Virus record (IMG/VR): IMGVR_UViG_3300025018_000001
Length of the DNA stretch: 64,000 bases
Strand: one strand, 5' to 3'
From: a virus
Lineage: Duplodnaviria > Caudoviricetes
This document shows positions 36,707 to 52,942 of the stretch, piece after piece (positions within the stretch are counted from its first letter, which is position 1; each line of letters starts with the position of its first letter). The notes below the pieces were generated by a model, which searched no databases, was not told the origin of the DNA, and saw only the letters and a program-made list of their open reading frames with translations. A program made the translations under genes and the position numbers.

Positions 36707-36735
36707 TTGCATAATTAATAGAAATAGATTATAAT
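36707..36735 (+). promoter_or_regulatory. Sigma70-type promoter for the RNA cluster
   Basis: TTGCAT-N17-TATAAT. Confidence 0.7.
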
Positions 36736-36780: not shown

Positions 36781-36858
36781 CGTATTACAGGTAGTGTTAA
36801 ACATGGTTACTTCAATTGGTGAAAAATACACCTTGTTTGTTAGTTCTCCTGTAATACG
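36781..36858 (+). ncRNA. Stand-alone Y-RNA-like element E
   Basis: CGTATTACAGG/CCTGTAATACG stem; TAGTGT...TGGTTACTTC...TTAGTTCT family motifs. Confidence 0.7.
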
Positions 36859-36863
36859 AGTTC

Positions 36864-36947
36864 GCGGGGGTGGTGGAATAGGTAGACACAAGGGACTTAA
36901 AATCCCTCGGCTGCAATGCCATGAGAGTTCAAGTCTCTCCCTCCGCA
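36864..36947 (+). tRNA. tRNA-Leu(UAA)
   Basis: AGGGA-CTTAAAA-TCCCT, long variable arm, GAGAG-TTCAAGT-CTCTC. Confidence 0.93.
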
Positions 36948-36960
36948 TACAATTAATAAT

Positions 36961-37033
36961 GCCGGTGTAGCTCAGTTGGAAGAGCGCCTCCCTTGTAAGG
37001 AGGATGTCACGGGTTCGATTCCTGTTACCGGCT
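36961..37033 (+). tRNA. tRNA-Thr(UGU)
   Basis: GCCGGTG/TACCGGC, CCTCC-CTTGTAA-GGAGG. Confidence 0.93.
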
Positions 37034-37054
37034 CAGTATATAAAGGTGAATTCA

Positions 37055-37267
37055 ATGGGTGTTTTGAGTTGTGATAGACCTGGTTGCGATAACATAATGT
37101 GTGATAGGTATTCAGGTAAACATGGTTATTTATGTTGGGAATGTTTTAATGAATTGGTTGCTAAAAAAATACCTGTAAGCGAGTTCATGCGTACAATAAG
37201 AGCAGAAGAAGATGAGAATCCTTATACTGAAGAATTTTATAATGAAATTTTTCCAATACGAAATTAA
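37055..37267 (+). CDS. Small Cys-rich protein
   Basis: AAAGGTG SD, ATG at 37055; CDRPGC...CWEC. Confidence 0.6.
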   Translation: MGVLSCDRPGCDNIMCDRYSGKHGYLCWECFNELVAKKIPVSEFMRTIRAEEDENPYTEEFYNEIFPIRN

Positions 37268-37270
37268 TTA

Positions 37271-37344
37271 CTGGGTGTAGCTCAGTCCGGTAGAGTACGT
37301 GCCTTGGACGCACGGAGTCGTTGGTTCGAATCCTACCTTAGGAG
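37271..37344 (+). pseudogene. tRNA-Pro(UGG)-like gene with unpaired acceptor stem
   Basis: D arm and CGTGC-CTTGGAC-GCACG intact; 3' acceptor strand CTTAGGA does not pair with CTGGGTG. Confidence 0.65.
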
Positions 37345-37398
37345 CAATATACCCATAACAATAATAACAATAAGTGTATTTAAACAACAGGAGTTACC

Positions 37399-37995
37399 AT
37401 GTTTAGAATTGGTTTGGAGTTAGAAGAATTTTGTGTCAATGGAGAAAAAGAAGTTATCTTAATACCGAAAGAGTCAAATATACCACATGATGGTTGTGGC
37501 TGGCTCATCGAATACAGAAGTGATGCAAGTAAAGATATTGTTGATGCCGTGTTTAGTTTACGTGCACATGAGTATAAAACAATTGAAACGCTAAAGAAAT
37601 TTAATGTATCCGGCGCTAGAATACCTGTAATGAAACCAAATAAAACTGTACGTATGGCTGCAAGAAAACGGTTCATTAAAGGCCTTGTACAATTTAACAA
37701 CATTTATGGTCATCAGTGTCATAAGAATACTCTAGCTGAAGCAGTTGCTGCTATACATATTTCTGTAACCTTTAGTGTTGAAGGTAAACATGGTAGTATA
37801 AATAAAGTATGGGACTTTCCTGATTTTATACGTCATATGGATAAAAAATTTGCTGAAGAGATATCAGCTGCGAAAAGACGTCCAGGTTTTTATGAAATTA
37901 AAAGTGACGGTAGAGTAGAGTATAGATCTTTACCAAATAATGTTGATTTAACAAAACTGATGTATGAAGTAAATGCATATAAGTTTAAATATTAA
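37399..37995 (+). CDS. Minimal COOH-NH2 ligase-fold protein (198 aa)
   Basis: IGLELEEF, DGCGWLIEYRS, AAIHIS, PGFYEIKSDGRVEYRSLP. Confidence 0.65.
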   Translation: MFRIGLELEEFCVNGEKEVILIPKESNIPHDGCGWLIEYRSDASKDIVDAVFSLRAHEYKTIETLKKFNVSGARIPVMKPNKTVRMAARKRFIKGLVQFNNIYGHQCHKNTLAEAVAAIHISVTFSVEGKHGSINKVWDFPDFIRHMDKKFAEEISAAKRRPGFYEIKSDGRVEYRSLPNNVDLTKLMYEVNAYKFKY

Positions 37996-38004
37996 AAGTT
38001 GTAA

Positions 38005-38139
38005 TGCTATTTAGTGTAACGGCAAGCATGCTAAAATCTCCTTATCTGTTAGTTCCCTTACGTAAAAGTAAGTGGTGTAAGATATGGTTACTTCATATCA
38101 TAAATGAGAAGACTGGTTCGACTCCAGAAATAGCTACCA
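38005..38139 (+). ncRNA. tRNA-Y RNA chimera A (CAU anticodon-like loop, encoded CCA)
   Basis: Acceptor, D and T arms; inserted hairpin with GTTCC/TGGTGT internal loop then TGGTTAC-TTCAT-ATCATAA-ATGAG. Confidence 0.75.
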
Positions 38140-38157
38140 AAAATTAAAATAAGGATT

Positions 38158-38304
38158 TGATCTGTAGCTCAGTTGGCTAGAGCAGCTGTTTAAAAAAGCC
38201 TGTTTTTGTTTGTTCCTCCTTTCTCCTCCTTCGTTGTGGATGGTGTAGAAAACAGATACTTCATATGGCACAGCGGGTCGTCAGTTCGAGTCTGACCAGA
38301 TCAA
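38158..38304 (+). ncRNA. tRNA-Y RNA chimera B
   Basis: TGATCTG/CAGATCA, GCTC/GAGC, GCTGT/ACAGC, GTCAG-TTCGAGT-CTGAC; insert CTGTTTT...GTTCC...TGGTGT..AAAACAG-ATACTTC. Confidence 0.75.
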
Positions 38305-38314
38305 CAATAAAGTT

Positions 38315-38416
38315 TAAAAACATACCAGATACTAGGGTGCGGTTGGTTTCGAAAGCCAATGAATCTAGTAGAGAGCGGCGGAAAATACAGCGAGATGAGT
38401 TCGAGGTATGTTTTTA
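38315..38416 (+). ncRNA. Structured RNA displaying a Ser(CGA)-like anticodon stem-loop
   Basis: TAAAAACATACC/GGTATGTTTTTA, TACTAG/CTAGTA, TTGGT-TTCGAAA-GCCAA. Confidence 0.5.
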
Positions 38417-38429
38417 TTTAATATGTATA

Positions 38430-38563
38430 GCGGATGTAGCTCAGCTGGGAGAGCGCCTTCATCATAGACACTGTATTAGCTTATTCCCTATTTTAAATAG
38501 TGGTGTATAACACAGATACTTCAACCAAGAAGGAAGTCGATAGTTCAAGCCTATCCATCCGCG
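38430..38563 (+). ncRNA. tRNA-Y RNA chimera C
   Basis: GCGGATG/CATCCGC, CCTTC/GAAGG, GATAG-TTCAAGC-CTATC; insert CTGT..TTATTCC-CTATT/AATAG-TGGTGT..ACAG-ATACTTC. Confidence 0.75.
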
Positions 38564-38583
38564 ACTTTAAAAGGAAATATTAT

Positions 38584-38754
38584 ATGAGATACGATGAAAA
38601 TTTAACGAAAGAAGCTGTACATGAGTGGGCTATTAAACATTTTAAAGGGCCTATAGAAGTGTATGCATTTAGAAAAACTTTTGTAGCAGTATGCAAAGAA
38701 GAAGTTGTAAATGTCCACTGTGATACTGGTTCAGTTGAAGTGGAAGATAGATGA
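38584..38754 (+). CDS. Small hypothetical protein (56 aa)
   Basis: AAGGA SD, ATG at 38584. Confidence 0.5.
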   Translation: MRYDENLTKEAVHEWAIKHFKGPIEVYAFRKTFVAVCKEEVVNVHCDTGSVEVEDR

Positions 38755-38759
38755 TATAT

Positions 38760-38832
38760 TGCGGGTTAGAGAAACGGCCATCTCGCTAGGCTCATATCCT
38801 GGAAACAACCGGTTCAACTCCGGTACCCGCTA
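38760..38832 (+). tRNA. tRNA-Met(CAU), initiator-like
   Basis: 1:72 mismatch, A11-U24, CTAGG-CTCATAT-CCTGG, ACCGG-TTCAACT-CCGGT; lacks the full three G-C pairs of the anticodon stem. Confidence 0.85.
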
Positions 38833-38836
38833 AATT

Positions 38837-38925
38837 TAAAACTTGAATGGTGAATAGTATGGTTACTTCTATAGACTCTTAATCTAACCAAAAACAACCT
38901 TACTAGTATGTTCCTTCAAGTTTTA
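38837..38925 (+). ncRNA. Stand-alone Y-RNA-like element F with Lys(CUU) anticodon stem-loop
   Basis: TAAAACTTGAA/TTCAAGTTTTA; TGGTGAATAG..TGGTTACTTC; TAGA-CTCTTAA-TCTA; GTTCC. Confidence 0.75.
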
Positions 38926-38954
38926 ATACTTGCTGATGATGTAGTTGATTTGTA

Positions 38955-39025
38955 ACTAGGGTGGTGAATAGAACAGTTACTTCACTGTAAATGAAAAAAC
39001 GACTGTTCTAGTCTGTTCCCTCTAA
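38955..39025 (+). ncRNA. Stand-alone Y-RNA-like element G with Tyr(GUA) anticodon stem-loop
   Basis: AGGG/CCCT; TGGTGAA; TAGAACAG/CTGTTCTA; TTAC-TTCA-CTGTAAA-TGAA; GTTCC; directly upstream of the Ro gene. Confidence 0.75.
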
Positions 39026-39048: not shown

Positions 39049-40455
39049 ATGGCAAAGTTAAACAAAGTACCCCAGTCCCTTAGAACTCATAATGGTGCAG
39101 TAGCTAAACACATCTCCCCTGAAAACATGCTTAGACGTTCTATTATGTCTTGCTTGCTTTGGGAAAAAGAGTACTACGAAGATGGTGTTACTATCGCACA
39201 ACGAATCGAAAAATTAGTACCACTAGTTGACCCAATGGTTGTTGCAGACTTGGCGATACTTGCTCGTACTAATATGAACCTCAGGCATGTACCACTGTTA
39301 CTGGTAAACACCATGCTAAAGTTCCCTGAACACAAGAAATATGCACGAGAAGTAATAGGTAAAGTTGTTAATCGTCCTGATGAACTTGGCGAACTTCTTA
39401 CTATGTACTTTGGTGGCGGAACCAAGAATAAACCATTGGCTAACTCTTTAAAGAAGGGTCTTGCTGATGCGTTTTGTAAATTCAATGAGTACCAGTTAGC
39501 TAAGTACAACAGGGAAGAAGCAATAAAACTCCGTGATGTACTGTTCCTGACTCATGCAAAACCAGTAGACAACACTCAGGCAGTGTTGTGGAAAAAGCTT
39601 ATCGGTGGCTTCTGTAAAAATTGTGGTGAAAGTCACTATAGCAAAGATACAAAACGAGTAGAGCCTAAAACAGAGGCTTGTTCACAGTATGAAGAGCTTA
39701 CGTTGGCTACACCTGACACTTGGGAAGTCGCTTTATCTTCTGGTGGAAACAAGCGTGAACACTGGACAAGACTACTTAAAGAAGGAAAGCTTGGTGCACT
39801 GGCACTGCTTCGTAACTTACGTAATATGCTTACTGCCGGTATTGATAAACAACAAATAGCAGAAGCTTTTACAAAGACTGACCTTAGTAAAGTTCTACCT
39901 TACAGGTACATAGCTGCTGCAAAGTATGCTCCAGGTTTGGAAAATATACTGGAAGATGGTATGTTCAAGAGCTTGAAAAATGCACCTCGTATGGAAGGAC
40001 GCACAACGCTGCTTATAGATGTTTCTGGTAGCATGGATTGGGCCTTATCTGCTAAGTCTGATCTTAAGAGATTGGATGCTGCTTGTGGTTTAGCTATGCT
40101 ACTTCGTGAAATCTGTGAAGACGTAGATATATTCACATTCAGTACCAGGCTTGTGCAGGTACCACCAAGAAGAGGGTTTGCTTTAAAAGAAGCCATAGAG
40201 CGTAGTCAAGGTCATAGCTCAACTTACCTTGGTAGGTCTTTAAAAGAGTTACAAAGTAAAACAAAATGTGATAGACTTATTGTTATCACAGATGAACAAT
40301 CGAACGACGCCGTACCAGATCCAAAAGGTACTGGCTATATGATAAACGTAGCTTCTGCCAGAAATGGTGTTGGTTACGGTGCTTGGACTCATGTAGATGG
40401 TTTTAGTGAGTCTGTAGTACGTTGGATTCAGGAATTGGAAAATGATAAAAAATAA
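39049..40455 (+). CDS. rsr: Ro60/Rsr (TROVE + vWA) RNA-binding protein
   Basis: LRRSIMSCLLWE, LRHVPLLL, RPDE, YQLAKY, LRDVLFL-x-H-x-KP, TWE, LLRNLRN, LP-x-R-Y, IDVSGSM, VITDEQ. Confidence 0.93.
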   Translation: MAKLNKVPQSLRTHNGAVAKHISPENMLRRSIMSCLLWEKEYYEDGVTIAQRIEKLVPLVDPMVVADLAILARTNMNLRHVPLLLVNTMLKFPEHKKYAREVIGKVVNRPDELGELLTMYFGGGTKNKPLANSLKKGLADAFCKFNEYQLAKYNREEAIKLRDVLFLTHAKPVDNTQAVLWKKLIGGFCKNCGESHYSKDTKRVEPKTEACSQYEELTLATPDTWEVALSSGGNKREHWTRLLKEGKLGALALLRNLRNMLTAGIDKQQIAEAFTKTDLSKVLPYRYIAAAKYAPGLENILEDGMFKSLKNAPRMEGRTTLLIDVSGSMDWALSAKSDLKRLDAACGLAMLLREICEDVDIFTFSTRLVQVPPRRGFALKEAIERSQGHSSTYLGRSLKELQSKTKCDRLIVITDEQSNDAVPDPKGTGYMINVASARNGVGYGAWTHVDGFSESVVRWIQELENDKK

Positions 40456-40477: not shown

Positions 40478-40517
40478 AGTAGCTAGAAACTGGCAATTTT
40501 TAGCTACTTTAATTTTT
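40478..40517 (+). terminator. Rho-independent terminator after the Ro gene
   Basis: AGTAGCTAGAAA/TTTTTAGCTACT stem followed by TTAATTTTT. Confidence 0.65.
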
Positions 40518-40532
40518 GTGTAGTCAACATGG

Positions 40533-41590: not shown

Positions 41591-42115
41591 GTGATGTTGC
41601 TCGTCGAAAAAGCAATGCTATTTGCTATTGAAGCACATAAAGGTACATTTAGAAAATTTGATGGTACAGCTTATATAAAACATCCTTTTTCTGTCATGGG
41701 GATTATGACTGAATACTCGGATGACCCTGCTGTACTAGCGGCTTGTCTACTACATGACACAGTCGAAGATATTGATGATATTACATTAGAAACAATGCAC
41801 GATACATTTGGTGAACGAGTGGCGAGTAACGTTTTTTATGTTACAGAAAAAGCTACTAAAGCTGACGGTAGTCGTAGAGTACGAAAAGAAATTGACCGTA
41901 TTCATTACAGTAAAGGTACAGTAGATTCACAAAATATAAAAGTAGCGGATATGTTGGATAATATTCCTGGTATTGTATTATGCGACCCTAAATTTGCACC
42001 TATATACTTAGAAGAAAAAAGACAGCTTTTATGGAGCTTAACAAAAGCAGTTCCAGATATAAAAGCTAAAGCAGAAAGACTAATAAACCAGATGTACTTA
42101 ATTCTAGGTAATTAG
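41591..42115 (+). CDS. HD-domain (p)ppGpp hydrolase-like protein (Mesh1/SAH type)
   Basis: A-x-EAH-x-G-x-FRK...YIKHP, LLHDTVED, IKVADMLDN. Confidence 0.85.
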   Translation: MMLLVEKAMLFAIEAHKGTFRKFDGTAYIKHPFSVMGIMTEYSDDPAVLAACLLHDTVEDIDDITLETMHDTFGERVASNVFYVTEKATKADGSRRVRKEIDRIHYSKGTVDSQNIKVADMLDNIPGIVLCDPKFAPIYLEEKRQLLWSLTKAVPDIKAKAERLINQMYLILGN

Positions 42116-42121
42116 TTTATA

Positions 42122-42257
42122 GGCCTGTTAGCTCAATCGGTTAGAGCATTAAGCTAAACCTTATTAGCTAGTTCCCTATTTAATTATAGCGGTGTATAAT
42201 ATGGTTACTTCTCTTATGATAAAAGAAAGATGGTAGGTTCGAATCCTCCACAGGCCA
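42122..42257 (+). ncRNA. tRNA-Y RNA chimera D (Ile-like body, GAU anticodon-like loop)
   Basis: GGCCTGT/ACAGGCC-A, D and T arms; insert CCTTATTA-GCTAGTTCC-CTAT/ATAG-CGGTGT-ATAATATGG-TTAC; TCTT-ATGATAA-AAGA. Confidence 0.78.
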
Positions 42258-42476
42258 AATTAAATTATTAACAAATGAATAAGGTCTCTGGTTGAGTAAT
42301 TCTAGATAGGGTGGTTCAATTCCGCCCGCCTTGAAAAATGTTGGGGTTGATGTGTTAGTCCTCCATGTATAGCTCCTAGGTAAGCTTACAGAAGCACTCA
42401 AGTGTAAACTGCAACTCTTCGTGGTTATCAGACTAAACCACGTTAACTTAATAGGGAGATTCCAAATAAGAAAAAC

Positions 42477-43199
42477 ATGAAAGAACCAAATGAGATAGAT
42501 ATTCTCGACTTGAATTATCCTTTACTTGTGAAATTTAAGGAGAAGTGTCCTGGTACTTTTGCACATAGCAAGAAATTAGCAGAAGTATTAGAAAAAATAG
42601 GTACTGCGCTTGGTCTTGATTCCAAAGTATTAAAAACTATAGGTCTGTATCATGATGTAGGTAAAATGGTAACACCTGTTTTATATTCTGAGAATCAACC
42701 AATAGATTTTAATCCACATGATAACCTGGAGCCTTGGATTTCATTTGCTCTAGTAGCTGGTCATGTAGCGCACTCAGTACAAATACTACTAAACGACCCT
42801 AACTTTGATGATGAGTTGGTAAAAGTATGCTCTCAACATCATGGCACAACTCTAGCTTTGTGCTTCTTTAAGAAAAGTGGTAGTGAAAATGAAGAGGAGT
42901 ATAGATACACAACACTTCGTCCACAATCTTTTGAAGCCGCATTACTAATGATTTGTGACCATCTAGAAGCACGTATTCGTTCTGAAATGAATAGCGGTAG
43001 GATAACAGATAAAGAGGGTATTGAAAATATAGTAGAGATAGTTTTCAATAGTTTAGTAGACGATGGTCAATTCGATGATGTAGCCGTACCGAGTTTTAAA
43101 ATATTACGGACACTGAAAAGTACACTGAAATTAGAATTTTCAGAGTTGTTCGAAGACCATAAGCGTATAGACTACGCACAAGATACAGTAAAGAAATAA
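42477..43199 (+). CDS. Stand-alone HDIG phosphohydrolase (PgpH/7TM-HD-like catalytic domain)
   Basis: PGTFAHS, LYHDVGK, ENQ...NPHD, QHHGTT, P-x-SFEAALLMICD. Confidence 0.85.
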   Translation: MKEPNEIDILDLNYPLLVKFKEKCPGTFAHSKKLAEVLEKIGTALGLDSKVLKTIGLYHDVGKMVTPVLYSENQPIDFNPHDNLEPWISFALVAGHVAHSVQILLNDPNFDDELVKVCSQHHGTTLALCFFKKSGSENEEEYRYTTLRPQSFEAALLMICDHLEARIRSEMNSGRITDKEGIENIVEIVFNSLVDDGQFDDVAVPSFKILRTLKSTLKLEFSELFEDHKRIDYAQDTVKK

Positions 43200-44396: not shown

Positions 44397-45290
44397 ATGA
44401 AAGAACAATCCGCAAATGTAGGCGTTGTAATTGGTCGTTTCCACGTAGACGATCTCCACGAAGGTCACCTAAATCTACTTTCTACAGTAGAGAACTCACA
44501 CAGTAGACTTATTATTTTTGTAGGTCTATCTCACAACAAATGTACTTATAATAACCCTTTAGATTTTGAATCAAGGCGGTCTATGTTACAAGCACATTAT
44601 CCAAAAGCAACTATTCTTTATATTAGAGACGTACATGACGATGTGATCTGGTCCAAAGATCTCGATAATAAAATATTGAACTTAATAGGGCCTAATCAAA
44701 CCGTATGTCTTTATGGTAGTAGGGATTCTTTTATTCCGTATTATCATGGAAAATTTCCAGTTAAAGAACTTGTACAAGAAACTTATTTCTCAGGCACCGA
44801 AGTACGCAAACAAGTAGCTATTAGATCCAATTCTACTAGAGACTTTAGAGCAGGTGCTATATGGGCGTTAGGTAATCAGTATGCATCCCCTAATTTTACT
44901 ATTGATGTTGCTATATTCAATGATGATTTTACTCGTGTCCTTCTCGGTCGCAAAATAAGAGAATCAAAATATAGATTCATTGGCGGCTTTATTCAAAACT
45001 CAGAGAAGATATCTGATGCCGTTGCAAGGGAAGCGTTGGAAGAAACTCATCTCGTACTTAATAATATTACTTACATTGATAGTTTCCCGTCTACTGACTG
45101 GCGTTACAAAGGTGAAAGAGATAAGATTACTACTATACTCCATACTGCTACAATTAAATCAGGCACACCTGAACCAGATGATGATATACATGAGCTTCGT
45201 TGGTTTGACTTCAACGGTGAAGTAATGGAACATCTCGTCCCAGAGCATCTTGAAATGATGAATCAGTTGTTACTCAAATCACGGAGTTAA
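44397..45290 (+). CDS. nadM: Bifunctional NMN adenylyltransferase / Nudix ADP-ribose pyrophosphatase
   Basis: IGRFH-x-x-x-LHEGH, NPL-x-F, Nudix box GG-x5-E-x7-REALEET. Confidence 0.92.
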   Translation: MKEQSANVGVVIGRFHVDDLHEGHLNLLSTVENSHSRLIIFVGLSHNKCTYNNPLDFESRRSMLQAHYPKATILYIRDVHDDVIWSKDLDNKILNLIGPNQTVCLYGSRDSFIPYYHGKFPVKELVQETYFSGTEVRKQVAIRSNSTRDFRAGAIWALGNQYASPNFTIDVAIFNDDFTRVLLGRKIRESKYRFIGGFIQNSEKISDAVAREALEETHLVLNNITYIDSFPSTDWRYKGERDKITTILHTATIKSGTPEPDDDIHELRWFDFNGEVMEHLVPEHLEMMNQLLLKSRS

Positions 45291-45298
45291 TTATAATA

Positions 45299-45496
45299 AT
45301 GATAAGAAAAACTGTATGCTTACCTATAAAAGTACCAGAAGGTAAGTACTGTTGGGAATATAACGTAGCTGGTACCTGTGATTACCATGATAATGAAGGT
45401 GGTACATCTGTATGTACATTACACTTTGATGTTAAAGAAACAAAGAAAGGCGTTATTAAGGACCCACTTTGCGCCTCATTAACATTGGTGAAATGA
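45299..45496 (+). CDS. Small Cys-containing protein
   Basis: ORF only. Confidence 0.55.
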   Translation: MIRKTVCLPIKVPEGKYCWEYNVAGTCDYHDNEGGTSVCTLHFDVKETKKGVIKDPLCASLTLVK

Positions 45497-45559
45497 CTGG
45501 CAAAAGACATATATGGTCATGAAATAACAGCAGATAGTGCCACAGAACTTGAAGGGCTT

Positions 45560-45772
45560 ATGTGTTGGAATAATCATAGGGTATTCAGCCTTATAAAAGA
45601 TAGACATGGTGTATTCTGGTCTGGATGGGATATAAACAGACATTATCCACACACATGGGAGCATCATGCTGACAATCTTGGTAGCGACCCTGAAGAAGCT
45701 AAAAGGTTACACAAAATAGAAACAGATAGAATACGAGCTAAGATTGATGAAGATCCATCAAGATGCTGGTAA
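45560..45772 (+). CDS. Hypothetical protein (70 aa)
   Basis: ORF only. Confidence 0.5.
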   Translation: MCWNNHRVFSLIKDRHGVFWSGWDINRHYPHTWEHHADNLGSDPEEAKRLHKIETDRIRAKIDEDPSRCW

Positions 45773-45775
45773 TAG

Positions 45776-45818
45776 AGTAGTATAATATAAATCCTAGATG
45801 CGTTGATGCAAGGGAGAA
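45776..45818 (+). promoter_or_regulatory. NAD-gene leader motif, copy 2
   Basis: AGTAGTATAAT..AATCCTAGATGCGTTGATGCAAGGGAGAA. Confidence 0.65.
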
Positions 45819-45823
45819 ACAAC

Positions 45824-47170
45824 ATGAAAAGAAGAAGCTTAGTATTTAAAACGGATTCCTATAAATCAAGTCACTGGTTACAGTTCCCTGAGAATAGAGG
45901 AAGTTACTACTACATAGAATCACGTGGTGGTGCAGAAGAAGTACTCTTCTTTGGTCTACAAGCAGTCATCAAAAGAATACTTTCAAAAATGCCTACAAAG
46001 AAAGAAGTTAAAAAAGCTGCTAAATTCTGGGCAAACCACGGAGTTGCTTTCAATAAGAAAGGTTGGATGAAACTTGTTAAACTTGGTTATTATCCGATTG
46101 AAATTCACGCTGTGGAAGAAGGTAAATTAATAAAAACAAAAGAAGTACAAGTAACAATTGAGTCTACTGATGACCGATTTGGTTGGCTTCCTGGTTGGAT
46201 TGAGACGACGTTGCTCCAGCTATGGTATCCTACTACAGTTGCGACGAAGCAATTCGAGTGTAAGAAAGTTATACTTGAGTACTTAAAGAAAACTGGTACC
46301 CCTGAAGATGCACCATTCAAACTACACTCATTTGGTTATAGAGGTGTTAGTTCTGAGGAGTCTGCTGGCATAGGTGGATCTGCTGAGTTACTTACATCCA
46401 TGGGTACTGACACTGTTGCTGGTATACTTGAAGCACAAGACATGTACAATACTAACGCTATGCTTGGCTTTAGTATAAATGCAGCGGAACACAGTACTAT
46501 TACTGCCTGGGGAAGAGAGTTTGAGCGTGATGCATACGAGAATATGCTCAATCAATTTCTTAAGCCTGGGGCTATTGTAGCAGTTGTGTCTGATAGCTAT
46601 GACCTAAGTAATGCTGTACTGAAGTATTGGGGTGGTGAGTTTAAAGAACGTATAATTCAATCAGGTGGTACATTGGTAGTGCGGCCTGATTCCGGTGAGC
46701 CATCTGAGATAGTACTTAGAACTCTTGAACAACTTGGCGAATGCTTTGGTACTGAAGTAAATGCTAAAGGATATAAAGTTCTTCCAAGTTACGTAAGAGT
46801 GATCCAAGGCGATGGCCTTAATGGTGCTGACGATATACGTAAAGTATTAGAAGTTATAACAGAGGCCGGTTGGTCCGCTGACAACGTAGCATTTGGTATG
46901 GGTGGTGGATCATTACAACAAGTCAACCGTGACACCTACAAATATGCTATGAAGATGTCTGCCATTTTCAAAAAGAACAAGGATGGCCAATTTGCTTGGT
47001 CTGATGTATTTAAAGAACCTGCTGATGCACCGTGGAAAAATAGTAAGAAAGGTAGATTTGATAAATTAAATCTACCACTTATTTGGAAAGATGGTAAGTT
47101 TTTTAAACAGTACACATTTGAAGAAGTGCGTGCTAACGCAATGGGTGAGCTTGAACGTAAGACAAGTTAA
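45824..47170 (+). CDS. nadV: Nicotinamide phosphoribosyltransferase (NAMPT)
   Basis: KTDSYKSSH, FFGLQ, FGYRG, AAEHS, VSDSYD, VRPDSG, IQGDG, FGMGG. Confidence 0.93.
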   Translation: MKRRSLVFKTDSYKSSHWLQFPENRGSYYYIESRGGAEEVLFFGLQAVIKRILSKMPTKKEVKKAAKFWANHGVAFNKKGWMKLVKLGYYPIEIHAVEEGKLIKTKEVQVTIESTDDRFGWLPGWIETTLLQLWYPTTVATKQFECKKVILEYLKKTGTPEDAPFKLHSFGYRGVSSEESAGIGGSAELLTSMGTDTVAGILEAQDMYNTNAMLGFSINAAEHSTITAWGREFERDAYENMLNQFLKPGAIVAVVSDSYDLSNAVLKYWGGEFKERIIQSGGTLVVRPDSGEPSEIVLRTLEQLGECFGTEVNAKGYKVLPSYVRVIQGDGLNGADDIRKVLEVITEAGWSADNVAFGMGGGSLQQVNRDTYKYAMKMSAIFKKNKDGQFAWSDVFKEPADAPWKNSKKGRFDKLNLPLIWKDGKFFKQYTFEEVRANAMGELERKTS

Positions 47171-47319
47171 CTCAGAGGGTGCAGAAGGACTATAGTAACT
47201 GACAAGATTATATGAATTCGAGTGCCTGATGGTGTTGCCGTGGAGGTTATGTATTATGGGAGTCTGTCAAACTCTTTAACTGAGGATAACGGTAACACCA
47301 CATTTTTTAAGGAGACTAT

Positions 47320-47526
47320 ATGGGATTTGCAACATTGCCAGAAAAGAAAAAGATAAAACCACGATATAAGAATACGCTTGTATGTCAAGAGTGTGGTACT
47401 GAATTTGGAGCCAACGTTACGTTTGTGCGAGGTATATCAGAGATACGTGGAACAGACTTTGAAAGATTTACACCACTAACTAAGATAGAAAAAGGCACAT
47501 GTCCCATGTGTAGTAATAATGTATAA
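47320..47526 (+). CDS. Zn-ribbon small protein
   Basis: CQECG...CPMC; AAGGAG SD. Confidence 0.6.
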   Translation: MGFATLPEKKKIKPRYKNTLVCQECGTEFGANVTFVRGISEIRGTDFERFTPLTKIEKGTCPMCSNNV

Positions 47527-47716
47527 GCGTAGCGGTGGGACTACAGACATAGAAGTAGTAAATCATATTGACTATATTGTTGTTGAGCCAAAAGTTAACC
47601 CTAAAAAGAAAATAAAAACATCTATGTATAAAGAGTCTAAAATAGCCCGTCACACAACAGTTGGTGGAAAGGGTATCGTAGGTAGGATATACAATAAAAA
47701 AGGTAAGAAGCTATGA
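47519..47716 (+). CDS. Small basic protein
   Basis: Coupled ORF. Confidence 0.5.
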   Translation: MYKRSGGTTDIEVVNHIDYIVVEPKVNPKKKIKTSMYKESKIARHTTVGGKGIVGRIYNKKGKKL

Positions 47717-48162
47717 TGCAGACATTAAATTGTGATATACTACACGGCTTAAAAGCAGACCAAAAAACAGTTATACTGCACGGTTGTAATTGTTTTAATA
47801 CGATGGGTGCAGGTATTGCAAAGTATTTACGTGGTAAATTTCCAAACGTATATGCAGTAGATTGTGCAACAAAGCGTGGCGACAAGAATAAATTAGGCAC
47901 ATGTAGTAGGGCAGTAATAAGTCATAACTTACATATTCTAAATTGTTATACTCAGTACAACTACGGAAGAGAGAAGAAGCTATATGCAAATTATATAGCT
48001 ATTGATGAATGTTTTAAAAGAATTGCTGCTGATTATGACACTACTTGGGAAATACGTATGCCTAGAATAGGTTGTGGCCTTGCCGGTGGTGATTGGGAAG
48101 TAATTGGTGCTTTGGTTGTTAATAATTTTAATAAGCATAACACAAACATATATTTTAAATAG
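47713..48162 (+). CDS. Macrodomain protein (ADP-ribose binding/hydrolase)
   Basis: HGCNC-x-x-TMGAGIA, MPRIGCGLAGGDW. Confidence 0.9.
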   Translation: MMQTLNCDILHGLKADQKTVILHGCNCFNTMGAGIAKYLRGKFPNVYAVDCATKRGDKNKLGTCSRAVISHNLHILNCYTQYNYGREKKLYANYIAIDECFKRIAADYDTTWEIRMPRIGCGLAGGDWEVIGALVVNNFNKHNTNIYFK

Positions 48163-48170
48163 GACTTAAC

Positions 48171-48983
48171 ATGTTGACAGAAATTAAAAAGAAAGAATTT
48201 GCTAATGGTTGTGTATATCTTTATGAGACTAAAGATAATTACCCCTTAGAAGTTACAGATACATTTTTACCAGCTTATACAAAAGATTCTATAGGTACTC
48301 ATCAAAATTTCCTTAAGGATGGTAACCTTGGTAGTAGAGATGAACGTTGGATGATTGGTGTATCAACTATGTCAGGATGTCCAGTAGGATGTAGATTTTG
48401 CGCAACAGCTAGTATGAAAAGATGTAGGAATCTTAAATCCCCTGAGATAGTAGCGCAAGTAGTTGAAATGGTGGCAAAACAAAAGAAAGAGTTAGTTGAA
48501 GGTTTGGTACTTGGTAAACGTGAAGGAGAGTTTAAAATAAACTACACACGTATGGGCGAACCATTTCTAAATATAGATGAAGTTAAAGCTGCTATTAAAG
48601 CAATTGATACTATACTTGCTGGTACTAAAGTACATCATTACATTTCCACTATTGGTGTAAAAGGCGCCGATTATTCATGGATTAAAGATAATATTACCTT
48701 ACAATTCTCTGTACATTCTTTTAATGAAGAGTACCGTGACTGGTTAATTCCTTTCAAGAACAAAATATCTTTGGAAGAAATGGGAAAGGTCAGGACAGGA
48801 AGTAAACTAAAAACAACTATCAACCTTACTCTAGCTAGAGCACGCGATTTTGATATTGATGCTTTGAAAAAGTATTTTGACCCTGAATATTTTTTTATTA
48901 AGATAAGCCCTATCAATGAAAATGATGTGTCAAAAAGTAATCAAATGGGTAGCGGGATTATTGGTCAGCATAATATAGTTTAA
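48171..48983 (+). CDS. RlmN/Cfr-like radical SAM protein
   Basis: S-x-x-SGCPVGCRFCAT, RMGEPFLN, ISTIG, LQFSVH. Confidence 0.8.
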   Translation: MLTEIKKKEFANGCVYLYETKDNYPLEVTDTFLPAYTKDSIGTHQNFLKDGNLGSRDERWMIGVSTMSGCPVGCRFCATASMKRCRNLKSPEIVAQVVEMVAKQKKELVEGLVLGKREGEFKINYTRMGEPFLNIDEVKAAIKAIDTILAGTKVHHYISTIGVKGADYSWIKDNITLQFSVHSFNEEYRDWLIPFKNKISLEEMGKVRTGSKLKTTINLTLARARDFDIDALKKYFDPEYFFIKISPINENDVSKSNQMGSGIIGQHNIV

Positions 48984-48988
48984 TATTA

Positions 48989-49294
48989 TTGGAGGGTACA
49001 TGTATGGCAATAGATCTTAAATCAGAAGTAGCCTTATTAAAAAAGTTAAAGAAAAGATTTTCGAGCAACGACTTATATTTTATGTCAATACAAGACATGT
49101 ATGAGGAGGGCTTGATTACACAAAAAGCTTTTAGATCAATTACTAATTGGTTAGCTAATATAGGTCAACCTAAAACAAGTGTAAGTATAAAAAGTAATGT
49201 AGGTCGAAATAGGGTAATACCTAGAAAAGAAATTGTACAAGAAGTTGACCCATGTAGTCATGGTGGAGGAAGCTTTAGAAATACATCATGTTAA
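48989..49294 (+). CDS. Hypothetical protein
   Basis: ORF. Confidence 0.55.
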   Translation: MEGTCMAIDLKSEVALLKKLKKRFSSNDLYFMSIQDMYEEGLITQKAFRSITNWLANIGQPKTSVSIKSNVGRNRVIPRKEIVQEVDPCSHGGGSFRNTSC

Positions 49295-50174
49295 ATACAA
49301 CGTTTACAAATAAGTTACAGTTTAGAAAAAAGAGTTGTAGTTTAAATGAAAAAAATGGTATTGATATACCTCACAATTACGTTAATATTTATGTAAAAAT
49401 TACAAGTAATTGTAATGCTAAATGTAACTTTTGTGTATATCGTAACAAAACACATAATACAAAGGAACAGTTTGACTTTATTAAGTTTGAAAACATGTTA
49501 TTGTTATTAGAAGCAGAAGACATACACATACATAAAGTGTCTTTTACGGGTGGTGAACCTTCAATGTATTGTAATAGGCTTGCAAAATGTTTAAACAGTA
49601 TAGCAAAGTTAAAATACAAACCATTTATTGTAGTAAATTCTAACGGATTTAGACTTAATTTGTTACAGCAATTCAAAGAGATTGACAGTATATCCCTTTC
49701 AAGGCATACACTAACTGACATAAGTAACTGTAGTGTATTTGGTACATTATCTGTTGCAAAAATCGCAGATATGAAACAAAATGTTAGTAACAAGATACAC
49801 TTGACCTGTAATCTAATAAAAGGACGTGTTGACTCAGAAAAAACTATAATTGATTACTTAGAAAAAGCGGCATCTCTTGGTATATATATGATGTTGGTTT
49901 TGTTAGTCTTATGAAGGTAAATGATTTTTGTACTAAACACCACGTAGATTTCAACGATATAGAATTTAAAGATCCATCCATAGTATGTAATAAGGAATGG
50001 ACTTATTCCGATATATGTAGGTGTAAAAATTTTATATACTTACCTGAGGAAGGAACTAAAGTAGTTAAATTTTACTCGCGCTACAGGTGTAGGAATGACG
50101 CAGAAGCTGAGAGTAACTACGTCTTTGATGATGGATACTTAAAAGATAATTTTAGTGGTAAAATAATTTACTGA
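49288..50174 (+). pseudogene. Radical SAM protein split by a +2 frameshift in a TA run (ORFs 49288-49914 and 49911-50174)
   Basis: CNAKCNFC, FTGGEP, NSNG; removing one AT at 49881-49889 gives ...GIYDVGFVSLMKVNDFC... in one frame. Confidence 0.7.
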
Positions 50175-50184
50175 GGAGGCTATT

Positions 50185-50382
50185 ATGGCAGAAGAAATAA
50201 GAAGACAAACTACTGATGGTAGGATGGTTACCAAAGAAGAATACATTAAAGAAGTTAAAGAAGCACTTATAAAAATTCAACTAGCTGAAGCTGGTTATGA
50301 CTATGCTATAGCTGTTGCTACGGATGCTGAGGTTAAAGCTGGTGCAGCTTGTGGACAATTAGCTATCATTAATGAGAGTTAA
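50185..50382 (+). CDS. Hypothetical protein (65 aa)
   Basis: GAGGAGG SD. Confidence 0.65.
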   Translation: MAEEIRRQTTDGRMVTKEEYIKEVKEALIKIQLAEAGYDYAIAVATDAEVKAGAACGQLAIINES

Positions 50383-50707
50383 TATGAAAAAAGTTTATAT
50401 ATCTTCTAAATACAGCGAAGGTGACAAAGATACTAATGTACAAGCACAAGTAACAGCTGGAAACTTACTAATAGATCGAGGTTTTAATCCCTTTGTACCA
50501 CTTTTGACACATTATTTAGATAAAGACCAGCCAAGACCTTATAATTACTGGCTAGGTGCCTTGATTGAGTGGTTAAAATTGTGTGATTGTTTATTAAGAC
50601 TTGAAGGAGCAAGCCCAGGAGCTGATATAGAAGTAATGATGGCAAAGCGTTTAGGTATACCAGTCTTCTATTCTATTGAAGAACTACTTAGCCATTATAA
50701 AAAGTAA
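50372..50707 (+). CDS. DUF4406 / nucleoside deoxyribosyltransferase-like protein
   Basis: VYISS-x-Y, GFNPFVP, CD-x-LL-x-L-x-G-x-S-x-GA-x-x-E. Confidence 0.7.
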   Translation: MRVNMKKVYISSKYSEGDKDTNVQAQVTAGNLLIDRGFNPFVPLLTHYLDKDQPRPYNYWLGALIEWLKLCDCLLRLEGASPGADIEVMMAKRLGIPVFYSIEELLSHYKK

Positions 50708-50718
50708 AGGAGGAGGCC

Positions 50719-51342
50719 ATGTTTAAATACCCAAGGACGTATCATTTACCATGGTCTCCTGGCGTAACAAAAGATGATAAGATAATAAAATCTACAGAGC
50801 ACTTTGTAGGTAAAAGAGTAATAGTAACAGAAAAATTAGATGGTGAATGTACTACAATTAAAAGAGGTCGTATACATGCACGCTCTATGGATTCTAAAGA
50901 TCATATATCAAGACACTGGATTAAAAATCAGTATGGTTATTTAACTAACGTTTTGAATACTGCTACTAGGGTATGTGGTGAGAATGTATTTGCTGAACAT
51001 TCTATTGCTTATCAAAATCTTATCAGTTTTTTTTACGCCTTCTCAGTATGGAATTTTTCAACTTGTTTATCATGGGATACTACACTTGAAGAATTAAAAT
51101 TTTTAAACATAGCACATGTACCAGTTATATATGATGGTATTTGGGACGAAGACCTTATAAAAAATATACCTGTTACCCCTACTGAAAAAGGTGATATGGA
51201 GGGGTATGTTGTAAGAATGGCTAGTTCTTTTGATATAATAGATTTTGACTATAATATTGCTAAGTATGTTAGAGCCGGGCATGTACAAACAGATGAGCAC
51301 TGGTTAAGTAAACCTGTTGTAAAAAATAAATTAAAGATATAA
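50719..51342 (+). CDS. ATP-dependent RNA ligase (Rnl2-like, short)
   Basis: KYPRTYHLPWSPG, TEKLDG, CGEN, EGYVVR, AKYVR-x-x-HVQTD-x-HW. Confidence 0.88.
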   Translation: MFKYPRTYHLPWSPGVTKDDKIIKSTEHFVGKRVIVTEKLDGECTTIKRGRIHARSMDSKDHISRHWIKNQYGYLTNVLNTATRVCGENVFAEHSIAYQNLISFFYAFSVWNFSTCLSWDTTLEELKFLNIAHVPVIYDGIWDEDLIKNIPVTPTEKGDMEGYVVRMASSFDIIDFDYNIAKYVRAGHVQTDEHWLSKPVVKNKLKI

Positions 51343-51353
51343 AGGAATTTAAT

Positions 51354-51788
51354 ATGTCAGATATACCAGCTGGTTACCAGCTTCGGGTCACTACGTGGGA
51401 AAATGATGGTGACCACTATAGTACAGAAATAACCTCTGGGTTAACTAAGGAAGACACAAGGTTTCTTATTTCTATTGCAGAACAGTTTAGTAAAAAAGGT
51501 AAATATGGGAATGACTTCATAAAAGACACTGATTTAATTGAAGTTATATCAAATGCTTTAGAAAGTAGCTCAGGTATAACATTACTAATGCGAGCTGATT
51601 GGCAAGAAGCTTTACAAAATAGTATTGATGAGGGTGATGGTGCTTATTATTTACATGAAATACTAAGTGATACTTTACTAAGCTGCCCTCAAGAGGACTA
51701 TGGTTCTGGGTTCTGTAGAAATGTGGAAACAATAGAAGTTTATTATATACCTGAAGATATTACTGAGGTAACAAAAGAATTTATTTAA
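51354..51788 (+). CDS. Hypothetical protein (144 aa)
   Basis: AAGGA SD. Confidence 0.7.
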   Translation: MSDIPAGYQLRVTTWENDGDHYSTEITSGLTKEDTRFLISIAEQFSKKGKYGNDFIKDTDLIEVISNALESSSGITLLMRADWQEALQNSIDEGDGAYYLHEILSDTLLSCPQEDYGSGFCRNVETIEVYYIPEDITEVTKEFI

Positions 51789-51796
51789 AGGAGTTA

Positions 51797-52942
51797 ATGA
51801 TGGAAAGGCAATTAGCATCTATCCAAAAAATCGTAGATTTACAACCTATCGCTGGCGCGGACAGAATTGAAGTTGCCTTTGTATTAGGTTGGCAATGTGT
51901 TGTAAAGAAAGGTGAATTTAATGTGGGTGACTTATGTGTATATTTTGAAATAGATTCTCAATTACCACCACATAAAGCCTTTGATTTTATGGCAGACCGT
52001 AAGTATAGAGTACGTACTATTAAGCTACGAAAACAAATTGCGCAGGGATTGGCATTACCAATAAGTGTACTAACTCATTTTAGTAGTAAGCTTCTTAATA
52101 AATACAAAGAAGGTGATGATGTTACTACTTTAATAGGCGTTACTAAATATGAACCACGTCCTGATAATGTAGATCCAAGTAGTAAAAAGAAACTAAAGCC
52201 AGTAGTTAATTATTTGATGGACTACTTCTGGTTCAGGAAGCTGTACAATATTATTATGCCAGGTAAGACTAAAGGTAACTTTCCTGAGTTTATTAATAAG
52301 ACTGACGAGACACGTATACAAAGTTGTCCTATACTTCTGAGAAAGAATATTGGTAAGTCCTTCTACTTTACTGAAAAACTTGATGGCAGTTCGGCATCTT
52401 ACTTCTTTAATACTGCTTTAGTTGGCAAAAAGCTAGGCTTATTCAATAAAGATAAAGGTAATGGCTTTGGTGTTTGCTCTAGAAATCTAAGGCTTGTTAC
52501 ACCGGATAATAGATACTGGTGGAAGTATGCTAAAGACCATGAGCTTGAAGATAAGATAACATGTATGTCAAAGTACTTAGGATTCAGTATTGCTGTACAA
52601 GGAGAATTAATAGGTCCAGGTATTCAGAAGAATAAGTACTGTCTTGATGACTTAGACTTCTATTGTTTCAATATCTTTAATATAGATGATAAAGTATATG
52701 TGTCTATAGAAAAGAAAGAAGAGGTATGTAAACTATTTGGTATAAAAACTGTACCGCGTGATGATACTGTAGTTGTTCTTACTGAAGATCATGACGTAAA
52801 CTTTTTTGTTAATCTTTCTAAGAGAAAGAGTAAATTAAACAAGAAAGTTACGGCTGAGGGTATTGTTGGTAGATGCACTGATGATGATACTATAAGTTTT
52901 AAAGTTATAAATCCCGAATGGTTATTGAAGAACGATGAGTAA
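51797..52942 (+). CDS. RNA ligase, DRB0094 family
   Basis: R-x-LASIQ, ADRIE, W-x-CVVKKG, VYFEIDS, TEKLDGSS, QGELIGPGIQKN, EGIV, SFKVIN. Confidence 0.92.
   Translation: MMERQLASIQKIVDLQPIAGADRIEVAFVLGWQCVVKKGEFNVGDLCVYFEIDSQLPPHKAFDFMADRKYRVRTIKLRKQIAQGLALPISVLTHFSSKLLNKYKEGDDVTTLIGVTKYEPRPDNVDPSSKKKLKPVVNYLMDYFWFRKLYNIIMPGKTKGNFPEFINKTDETRIQSCPILLRKNIGKSFYFTEKLDGSSASYFFNTALVGKKLGLFNKDKGNGFGVCSRNLRLVTPDNRYWWKYAKDHELEDKITCMSKYLGFSIAVQGELIGPGIQKNKYCLDDLDFYCFNIFNIDDKVYVSIEKKEEVCKLFGIKTVPRDDTVVVLTEDHDVNFFVNLSKRKSKLNKKVTAEGIVGRCTDDDTISFKVINPEWLLKNDE

Follow-up and report, generated by a model that had tools for sequence, protein, structure and literature searches.

Introduction

What does the variable half of a Y RNA recruit in bacteria and phages? 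Four decades after Ro60 and Y RNAs became known, these recruits are still being sought. The question is raised by a stretch of 64,000 nucleotides (nt) from a tailed phage (Duplodnaviria; Caudoviricetes; IMG/VR record IMGVR_UViG_3300025018_000001), which at its full length is referred to below as the window, and in which three short elements, denoted E, F and G, lie upstream of a gene for a Ro60 protein. An initial annotation, made from the sequence alone, described the elements as stand-alone Y-like RNAs that display anticodon stem-loops and suggested that they form a Ro60-protected library of decoys against anticodon nucleases. Here, we report that the anticodon-like tip of F and G is not a product of chance but a real and widespread feature of a large family of RNAs encoded beside Ro60 genes. 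In the explanation that we consider probable, E, F and G are phage short Y RNAs of the YrlA/YrlB lineage, the tip of which would serve as an effector module.

Three hairpins upstream of a phage Ro60 gene

All three elements were recovered at the places and with the motifs initially reported, on the + strand and at distances of 2.2 kilobases (kb; E), 124 nt (F) and 24 nt (G) from the Ro60 gene (Table 1). Each forms a long, imperfect hairpin that is closed through pairing of its 5′ and 3′ ends, with minimum free energy (MFE) z-scores of −3.9 for E, −2.8 for F and −2.8 for G. The terminal stem measures 11 base pairs (bp) in E and F, as previously annotated, and 5 bp (UAGGG/CUCUA) in G, and is followed, from 5′ to 3′, by one bulged U, two clamp pairs and an internal loop with U(G/A)GUG on its 5′ strand and GUUC(C/U) on its 3′ strand. 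Then come an 8-bp second stem, the sequence (G)UUACUUC, a variable tip, an A-rich linker and the return strand. The GUUACUUC motif is common to the three elements, whereas the first clamp pair alternates between G:C (UGGUG...GUUCC) and A:U (UAGUG...GUUCU, in E).

The tips UAGA-CUCUUAA-UCUA of F, UUCA-CUGUAAA-UGAA of G and UUCA-AUUGG-UGAA of E are likewise all present as described. When considered against the signature of an anticodon stem-loop (Y32, U33, R37, A38), CUCUUAA of F and CUGUAAA of G conform to it and the 5-nt loop of E does not, so that the claim of anticodon stem-loops holds for F, for G and, as set out below, for the family at large, but not for E. The E tip is recurrent and distinct from that of F and G: AAUUGG(Y)GAAAA is also found in the related loci L001, L006 and L008, with near variants in many viral loci. 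As for the surroundings, the gene for tRNA-Leu (36864) begins 5 nt past the end of E, and that for tRNA-Met ends at 38833, 4 nt before the start of F. G had been placed directly before the Ro start, and indeed the ribosome-binding site (RBS) lies 9 nt and the ATG (39049) 24 nt past its end, with no terminator between; the open reading frame encodes a TROVE domain and a Ro60-type vWA domain.

A family of RNAs that travels with Ro60

Related phage contigs were reached via the Ro60 protein, and their loci are labelled L001, L002 and so on. L001 carries syntenic counterparts of E, F and G, L002 of E and G, and L003 of F and G; three elements stand in tandem in L008. The terminal stems of the homologues are wholly different in sequence, with the pairing kept: among 13 sequences from the window, L001, L002, L003 and L008, 89% of cells are paired, as against 71.5% in shuffles and 44–56% with slid partners, and 12 of the 15 pairs have changed on both sides. 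A covariance model built from E, F, G and their homologues, R1, gave 27 matches at E-values up to 1 in the window and L001–L009, 23 of them at 1e-4 or better. E, F and G are the only strong matches in the window, and matches independent of training were obtained in L004–L007 and L009, that is, in all other metagenomic Ro60 loci fetched.

In total, R1 located about 340 elements next to Ro60 genes, in DNA of phages, metagenomes and bacteria; 156 members reside in 78 viral Ro60 loci, and 161 in 83 loci of which 80 are bacterial and three belong to cultured phages. The members, one to five per locus, mostly lie within a few hundred bases of the Ro60 gene, upstream or downstream of it and at variable distance, and at E-values of 1e-3 or better they are encoded on the Ro60 strand in every case. 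Across 133 distinct viral sequences outside the training set, 96% of cells are paired, compared with 62% for shuffled sequences, and each of the 15 pairs has changed on both sides, in an alignment that was fitted to R1 and is thus biased towards the structure. No RNA data set is on record as containing the window DNA; four sequencing runs labelled as RNA consist of contigs of relatives, are probably DNA and give neither ends nor strand.

The cultured phages with R1 matches are Caulobacter phage CcrColossus, Xylella phage Usme and Bacteroides phage crAss001. In crAss001 (L174 4018-4733; about 96056-96771 of the record), three to four members with R1 E-values of 6e-10 to 0.015 sit in an unannotated gap of ~900 nt on the 3′ side of the TROVE gene, and in the best of them the hairpin is followed by ACCAAAAAUA, as in F of the window. 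The bacterial loci L090–L169, mostly from Acidobacteriota of the order Terriglobales, encode a chromosomal Ro60 that shares 52–55% identity with the phage protein. Up to five Y RNAs of the family stand in an array upstream of the gene, with short and long forms mixed and with differing anticodon-like triplets.

Relationship to known Y RNAs

The handle of GC-richer relatives reads UGGCGAAG, and the GGCGAAG carried by these members corresponds to GNCGAAN0-1G, a motif of YrlA and YrlB that has been tied to Rsr binding (Chen et al., 2014; PMC4201824). Similarly, the YUAC that follows the second stem in relatives is the YUAY described as conserved in the same work. The handle as conserved in the family comprises the bulged U, a clamp of G:C or A:U, GG(U/C)GAA on the 5′ strand and GUUCC on the 3′ strand. 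Because their relatives carry the published Rsr-binding motif, E, F and G can be assigned to a known kind of RNA, the short Y RNAs, and their initial designation as stand-alone Y-like RNAs is supported by the YrlA/YrlB-class handle and by the association with Ro60.

About a quarter of the viral R1 matches and over half of the bacterial ones are long members of 125–140 nt, and these contain a T arm, closed acceptor hairpin and D arm arranged in the permuted order of YrlA. The Rfam YrlA model (RF02553) matches the cores of long members below threshold, at E-values of 1e-6 to 5e-4, for example at L006:1355-1407 inside the R1 match L006:1312-1440. The likeness to YrlA (PMC4201824; crystal structure in Wang et al., 2018, bioRxiv 10.1101/312249) thus extends from the paired ends, with GNCGAA and then YUAY, to the order of the three tRNA-like parts in the long relatives. 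By contrast, the hairpin after YUAY, which in YrlA has been called a poorly conserved ‘V’ (variable-arm) stem-loop, with an anticodon loop said to be absent (PMC4201824; bioRxiv 10.1101/312249), has the dimensions and loop signature of an anticodon arm in the present clade; bacterial YrlA RNAs have been described as tRNA-elbow mimics.

YrlB of S. Typhimurium and M. smegmatis and Yrn2 of D. radiodurans are each the second and shorter of the Ro60-bound RNAs, with a gene next to rsr and on its strand (PMC4201824). They resemble E, F and G in being long hairpins with a GNCGAA-type motif, lacking the full tRNA-like domain and being cut from a common precursor, on their published description. The differences are that F and G end in a 7-nt loop of the anticodon type and that Ro60 binding is proven for the YrlB-type RNAs and inferred for the window elements. 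The Ro60 of Thermus phage phiLo, which in vitro binds host PNPase as well as two Y-like RNAs encoded upstream of it (PMC12135203), offers a phage precedent: it is homologous to the window protein and is preceded immediately by two short stem-bulge-stem RNAs with CGAA, Yrl1 and Yrl2 (NAR 2025, PMC12135203), but the two proteins are only about 28% identical and an anticodon-like tip is not described there. Metazoan Y RNAs, too, bind Ro60 on a bulged stem formed by pairing of the ends and recruit factors through a variable apical module (Stein et al., 2005, as related in PMC4201824); they otherwise show no sequence relation, have a GGUCCGA motif, are transcribed from RNA polymerase III genes, carry an oligo-U tail and have no tRNA-derived tip.

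Two formal assignments were rejected. E, F and G cannot be classified as Rfam YrlA, as they have no T, acceptor or D arm and RF02553 is silent on them; more generally, no Y RNA family of Rfam matches them at permissive E-values. Nor are they tRNAs, since ARAGORN makes no call and the score of G with the Rfam tRNA model, 16.6 bits, falls short of the gathering score of 29; this weak match aligns the G hairpin to the anticodon arm. R1, run with filters off, found no match in Ralstonia phage RsoM2USA. We regard E, F and G as probable minimal members of the YrlA/YrlB lineage of Ro60 partner RNAs and as the counterpart of YrlB and Yrn2, with binding to Ro60 predicted from their handle and setting.

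The anticodon-like tip across the family

The tips were surveyed in 155 distinct phage and metagenome members, with the hairpin anchored on the conserved UUC and with shuffles as the control. A 7-nt loop is present in 65 of the 155 (shuffles: mean 12, maximum 22), and 40 of those 65 have Y32-U33-R37 (shuffles: mean 1.1, maximum 5), whereas a loop of the form CU-NNN-AA occurs in 31 members. Within the loop, conservation reaches 71% for C32, 75% for U33, 69% for A37 and 71% for A38, and positions 34–36 hold 36 different triplets. When a short spacer is allowed, as in F, the number of canonical hairpins is 49, with 27 triplets, and A34 is found in only three of the 49. The tip stem covaries (UUCA/UGAA, UUCGA/UCGAG, UUCGC/GCGGG, UCGA/UCGA, CAUA/UAUG, UAGA/UCUA). 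In bacterial Ro60 loci, we identified 36 canonical hairpins, such as UCGA-CUGUAAA-UCGA, mostly in Terriglobales, and these loci have ordinary chromosomal neighbours, for instance genes for a GGDEF/EAL protein and MsrA.

The initial annotation had proposed that homologues should vary in the triplet while keeping U33 and the purine at position 37. Family-wide, this is largely what is seen; the syntenic G orthologues of L002 and L003 depart from it, and because they have no hairpin, the tip was at first expected to fall, an expectation that the family-wide count overturned. By amino acid, the commonest triplets are those for Ser, Asn, Arg and Lys; read as a list of targets, the triplets yielded no interpretable pattern. 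In the searchable literature we found no description of an anticodon signature in the tip of a Y RNA, and an anticodon-arm tip is apparently undescribed in print.

The triplet changes rapidly. In ten close pairs, not all of them independent, substitutions affect 7 of 30 triplet positions, 5 of 40 positions in the loop flanks and 25 of 638 positions in the rest. L050 and L046, compared over 67 nt, are distinguished by two positions only, both of them within the loop, and identical stems carry GUU in L014, GUG in L028, AUU in L013 and AUG in L035. Between the window and L001, the F and G loops are unchanged and nine other positions differ; in the F orthologue of L003 the loop is CUAUUAA. Either diversifying selection or a plain lack of constraint would account for so high a rate in the triplet.

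Origin of the tip from a permuted tRNA

In the long relatives, the tip hairpin has a 5-bp stem and is followed by a 5-nt variable loop of the AGGUC type and then by the T arm, the arrangement seen in a tRNA from position 27 onwards. The long relatives were un-permuted in silico by cutting the acceptor hairpin and removing the Y stem; ARAGORN then called a tRNA with the tip triplet as its anticodon in 22 of 37 cases, compared with 2–4 of 37 when the hairpin region was shuffled, and the Rfam tRNA model reaches its threshold on three long relatives. The layout, the ARAGORN calls and the Rfam tRNA matches identify the long-relative clade as complete circularly permuted tRNAs, which on this comparison open between positions 26 and 27, the point at which the Ro60 handle joins. 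Inheritance from such a permuted tRNA domain is the simplest origin of the tip. F and G would then probably retain the handle and the anticodon arm only, the T arm, acceptor hairpin and D arm having been deleted. A model in which Y RNAs originate from dimeric tRNAs has been put forward previously (bioRxiv 10.1101/312249).

The reverse topology is also encoded in the window. Four genes of 134–147 nt (38005-38139, 38158-38304, 38430-38563 and 42122-42257) have tRNA ends, with acceptor, D and T arms, and carry a loop-closed Ro60 handle inside, which is the opposite of the YrlA arrangement. In the gene at 38005-38139, the handle lies between the D arm and an anticodon arm, UUCAU-AUCAUAA-AUGAG; brute-force deletion of the insert in silico turns this gene into an ARAGORN tRNA-Met(CAU), and the other three give ambiguous results.

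Proposed mode of action and alternative explanations

The position of E and F right next to tRNA-Leu and tRNA-Met, respectively, and of G within the Ro60 leader suggests that tRNA-processing nucleases would cut the three RNAs out of transcripts of the tRNA cluster and of Ro60; Y RNAs of M. smegmatis are processed from the rsr precursor (PMC4201824), and YrlA is a substrate of RNase P. The handle would then bind the ring of the phage Ro60, and the bound RNA may gate Ro60 or tether it to a factor such as host PNPase, as in D. radiodurans, Salmonella and phiLo, with the Rsr-Y RNA-PNPase machine and the Ro60-Yrl-PNPase complexes of phiLo as models. The tip would act as the effector module. Since C32, U33, A37 and A38 are selected and the triplet is free, it would be offered to a protein that reads the shape of the loop generically rather than one particular anticodon, and a generic anticodon-loop reader is the most likely partner. 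As the tip of E is different, the partners that the three RNAs bring to Ro60 probably differ as well.

Several observations weigh against this explanation. The window handle is a variant of GNCGAA, namely, GGUGAAU in F and G and AGUGUUA in E; RF02553 finds no match in E, F or G at E-values up to 10, and its gathering score is reached in none of 20 related loci; and R1, with filters off, does not recognize the experimentally tested Yrl RNAs in the phiLo locus. Because these cross-tests are empty, the tie to proven Ro60 binders rests on shared motifs and synteny. As regards the tip, the stems in F and G have 4 bp, compared with 5 bp in a real anticodon stem; L001 keeps the G loop, but the syntenic G elements of L002 and L003 have no hairpin; and other tips are found in two thirds of the family, showing that the tip is dispensable in evolution.

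The last two points would be readily understood if the tip were a neutral relic of the ancestral tRNA and the short Y RNAs acted solely through the handle, as a gate or a PNPase tether. The unconstrained triplet fits this alternative as well, as does the position of the tip, which corresponds to the anticodon arm of a permuted tRNA and agrees with the dimeric-tRNA origin model. A neutral tip, however, would not hold C32, U33, A37 and A38 at about 70% each, its stem would not be expected to covary, and a 7-nt loop five times commoner than in shuffles would not persist in phages and bacteria alike, across Ro60 proteins that are only 44–55% identical. We therefore consider a relic unlikely, although it remains the strongest competitor of an effector tip.

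The decoy proposal of the initial annotation fares less well. In its general form, Ro60-bound Y RNAs would be programmable baits for anticodon-specific tRNases, both phage-defence enzymes and inter-bacterial toxins: the tips would act as decoys or cleavage sensors for nucleases such as PrrC, AriB, PtuAB and those of the colicin E5/D and VapC types, and Ro60 would protect the bait or the remainder of the RNA, report the cut or couple it to RNA repair or decay. The maintenance of loop geometry alongside a fast-changing triplet fits such a bait, and so does the presence of several different triplets in single loci, but a fast triplet is equally expected from unconstrained bases, and no normal tRNA corresponds to the triplets AUU and AUG. 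Genes of tRNA conflict and counter-defence are plentiful in the window (tRNAs, two RNA ligases, HD, NAMPT, NUDIX and Macro domain proteins), phage tRNAs are reported to counter anticodon nucleases (PMC10264068, PMC11555353), and phage Bas63 has a Ro60-like protein that acts against a defence system (PMC11482910). Conversely, many anticodon nucleases require the whole tRNA body or its modifications. The proposal is not favoured because the hairpin is absent from syntenic G orthologues and E never has it, and because hairpins of this type also abound in Acidobacteriota, in chromosomal Ro60 loci flanked by ordinary cellular genes; we deem it improbable.

Similarly improbable is a purely cis-acting role, with G as an autoregulatory leader of Ro60 and E and F as processing or spacer structures of the tRNA operon. 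The short, terminator-free interval between G and the RBS and ATG, the conservation of the placement of G and of the leader that follows it in L001, L002 and L003, and the direct contact of E and F with tRNAs are all compatible with such a role. Yet the elements form arrays of up to five on either side of Ro60 and at variable distance, the Y RNAs of M. smegmatis are released from the rsr precursor, and abutting a tRNA is the usual route by which small RNAs are released. Both roles could coexist. Finally, that the elements are merely decayed tRNA genes or fragments devoid of function, as their location in a tRNA cluster and the weak tRNA match of G might hint, can safely be set aside, given that they have no D, T or acceptor arm, that their non-tRNA stems covary strongly and that the handle is kept across hundreds of Ro60 loci.

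Genomic setting

The phage from which the window derives is large and uncultivated, and its DNA is present in metagenomes from aquifers and cold springs. Its closest relatives, all IMG/VR contigs, reach 228 kb, and a search of cultured phages for near-identical DNA returned only a match to tRNA-Leu. The tRNA cluster spans 27.5–42.3 kb of the window. The Ro60 protein, a homologue of the crystallized one of phiLo (PDB 9KOP/9L5Y; E-value 1.9e-27), is the presumed partner of E, F and G. The hairpin downstream of its gene is the likely end of an F-G-Ro60 transcription unit. The promoter-like site upstream of E, which has a comparable counterpart (TTGTTA-N17-TATAAT) 5′ of E in L002, was not listed by the scan because its −35 hexamer matches at only 3 of 6 positions, and we infer it to be a candidate promoter.

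Table 1. Features of the Ro60 locus, in window coordinates.
Feature	Position	Strand	Remarks
Promoter-like site	36707..36735	+	TTGCAT-N17-TATAAT, ~45 nt 5′ of E; read by eye
Putative short Y RNA E	36781..36858	+	R1 73.8 bits; compensatory changes in L001 and L002 orthologues
E, terminal stem	36781-36791/36848-36858	+	
E, UAGUG	36792-36796	+	
E, stem 2	36798-36806/36831-36839	+	
E, UUACUUC	36807-36813	+	
E, apical hairpin	36811-36823	+	UUCA-AUUGG-UGAA, then A-rich tract
E, GUUCU	36843-36847	+	
Putative short Y RNA F	38837..38925	+	R1 73.7 bits
F, terminal stem	38837-38847/38915-38925	+	
F, UGGUG	38848-38852	+	
F, stem 2	38855-38862/38898-38905	+	
F, UUACUUC	38863-38869	+	
F, anticodon-arm-like hairpin	38872-38886	+	UAGA-CUCUUAA-UCUA, then ACCAAAAAC linker
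F, GUUCC	38910-38914	+	
Putative short Y RNA G	38957..39024	+	R1 74.6 bits; 38955-39025 in the initial annotation
G, terminal stem	38957-38961/39020-39024	+	
G, UGGUG	38962-38966	+	
G, stem 2	38969-38976/39003-39010	+	
G, UUACUUC	38977-38983	+	
G, anticodon-arm-like hairpin	38981-38995	+	UUCA-CUGUAAA-UGAA, then A-rich linker
G, GUUCC	39015-39019	+	
RBS of Ro60 gene	39034-40	+	AAAGGAG
Phage Ro60 gene	39049..40455	+	468 amino acids; TROVE ring (E-value 1.8e-22) and Ro60-type vWA domain
Terminator-like hairpin and T run	40478..40518	+	Just 3′ of the Ro60 stop

Two further loci in the tRNA cluster deserve mention. A tRNA-like gene at 37277-37337, with the loop CUUGGAC, is matched by the Rfam tRNA model at positions 7–64 only (42 bits); ARAGORN does not call it, and by eye its flanks have no acceptor stem. 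At 38318-38415 (about 3405-3500 in L001), between two of the Y RNAs with tRNA topology, lies a conserved structured RNA of ~95 nt with an MFE z-score of −2.95. Its core of ~75 nt is nearly identical in L001, its outer stems vary on both strands with the pairing kept, and it has no match in Rfam at E-values up to 10. Downstream of the Ro60 locus (41591-43199 and 44397-52942), there is a block of likely counter-defence and RNA-repair genes that encode two HD phosphohydrolases, a NUDIX protein, NAMPT (nicotinamide adenine dinucleotide salvage), a Macro domain protein, two radical-SAM proteins and two RNA ligases, one of which has a PHA02142 OB-fold domain.

Concluding remarks

The anticodon-arm hairpin is kept across giant phages, crAss001, phages of Xanthomonas/Xylella and Caulobacter, and the chromosomes of Acidobacteriota, and the minimal versions consist of a Ro60 handle and an anticodon-arm hairpin alone. 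The published model in which Y RNAs arise from tRNA transcripts is refined by the permuted-tRNA layout. For the recruits of the variable half, the search is narrowed to proteins that read anticodon loops, namely, modification enzymes, repair ligases, synthetases and anticodon nucleases, and very small, easily synthesized RNAs are now supplied with which the effector may be fished out, whereas crAss001 provides a cultivable system in which this family of Y RNAs can be tested.

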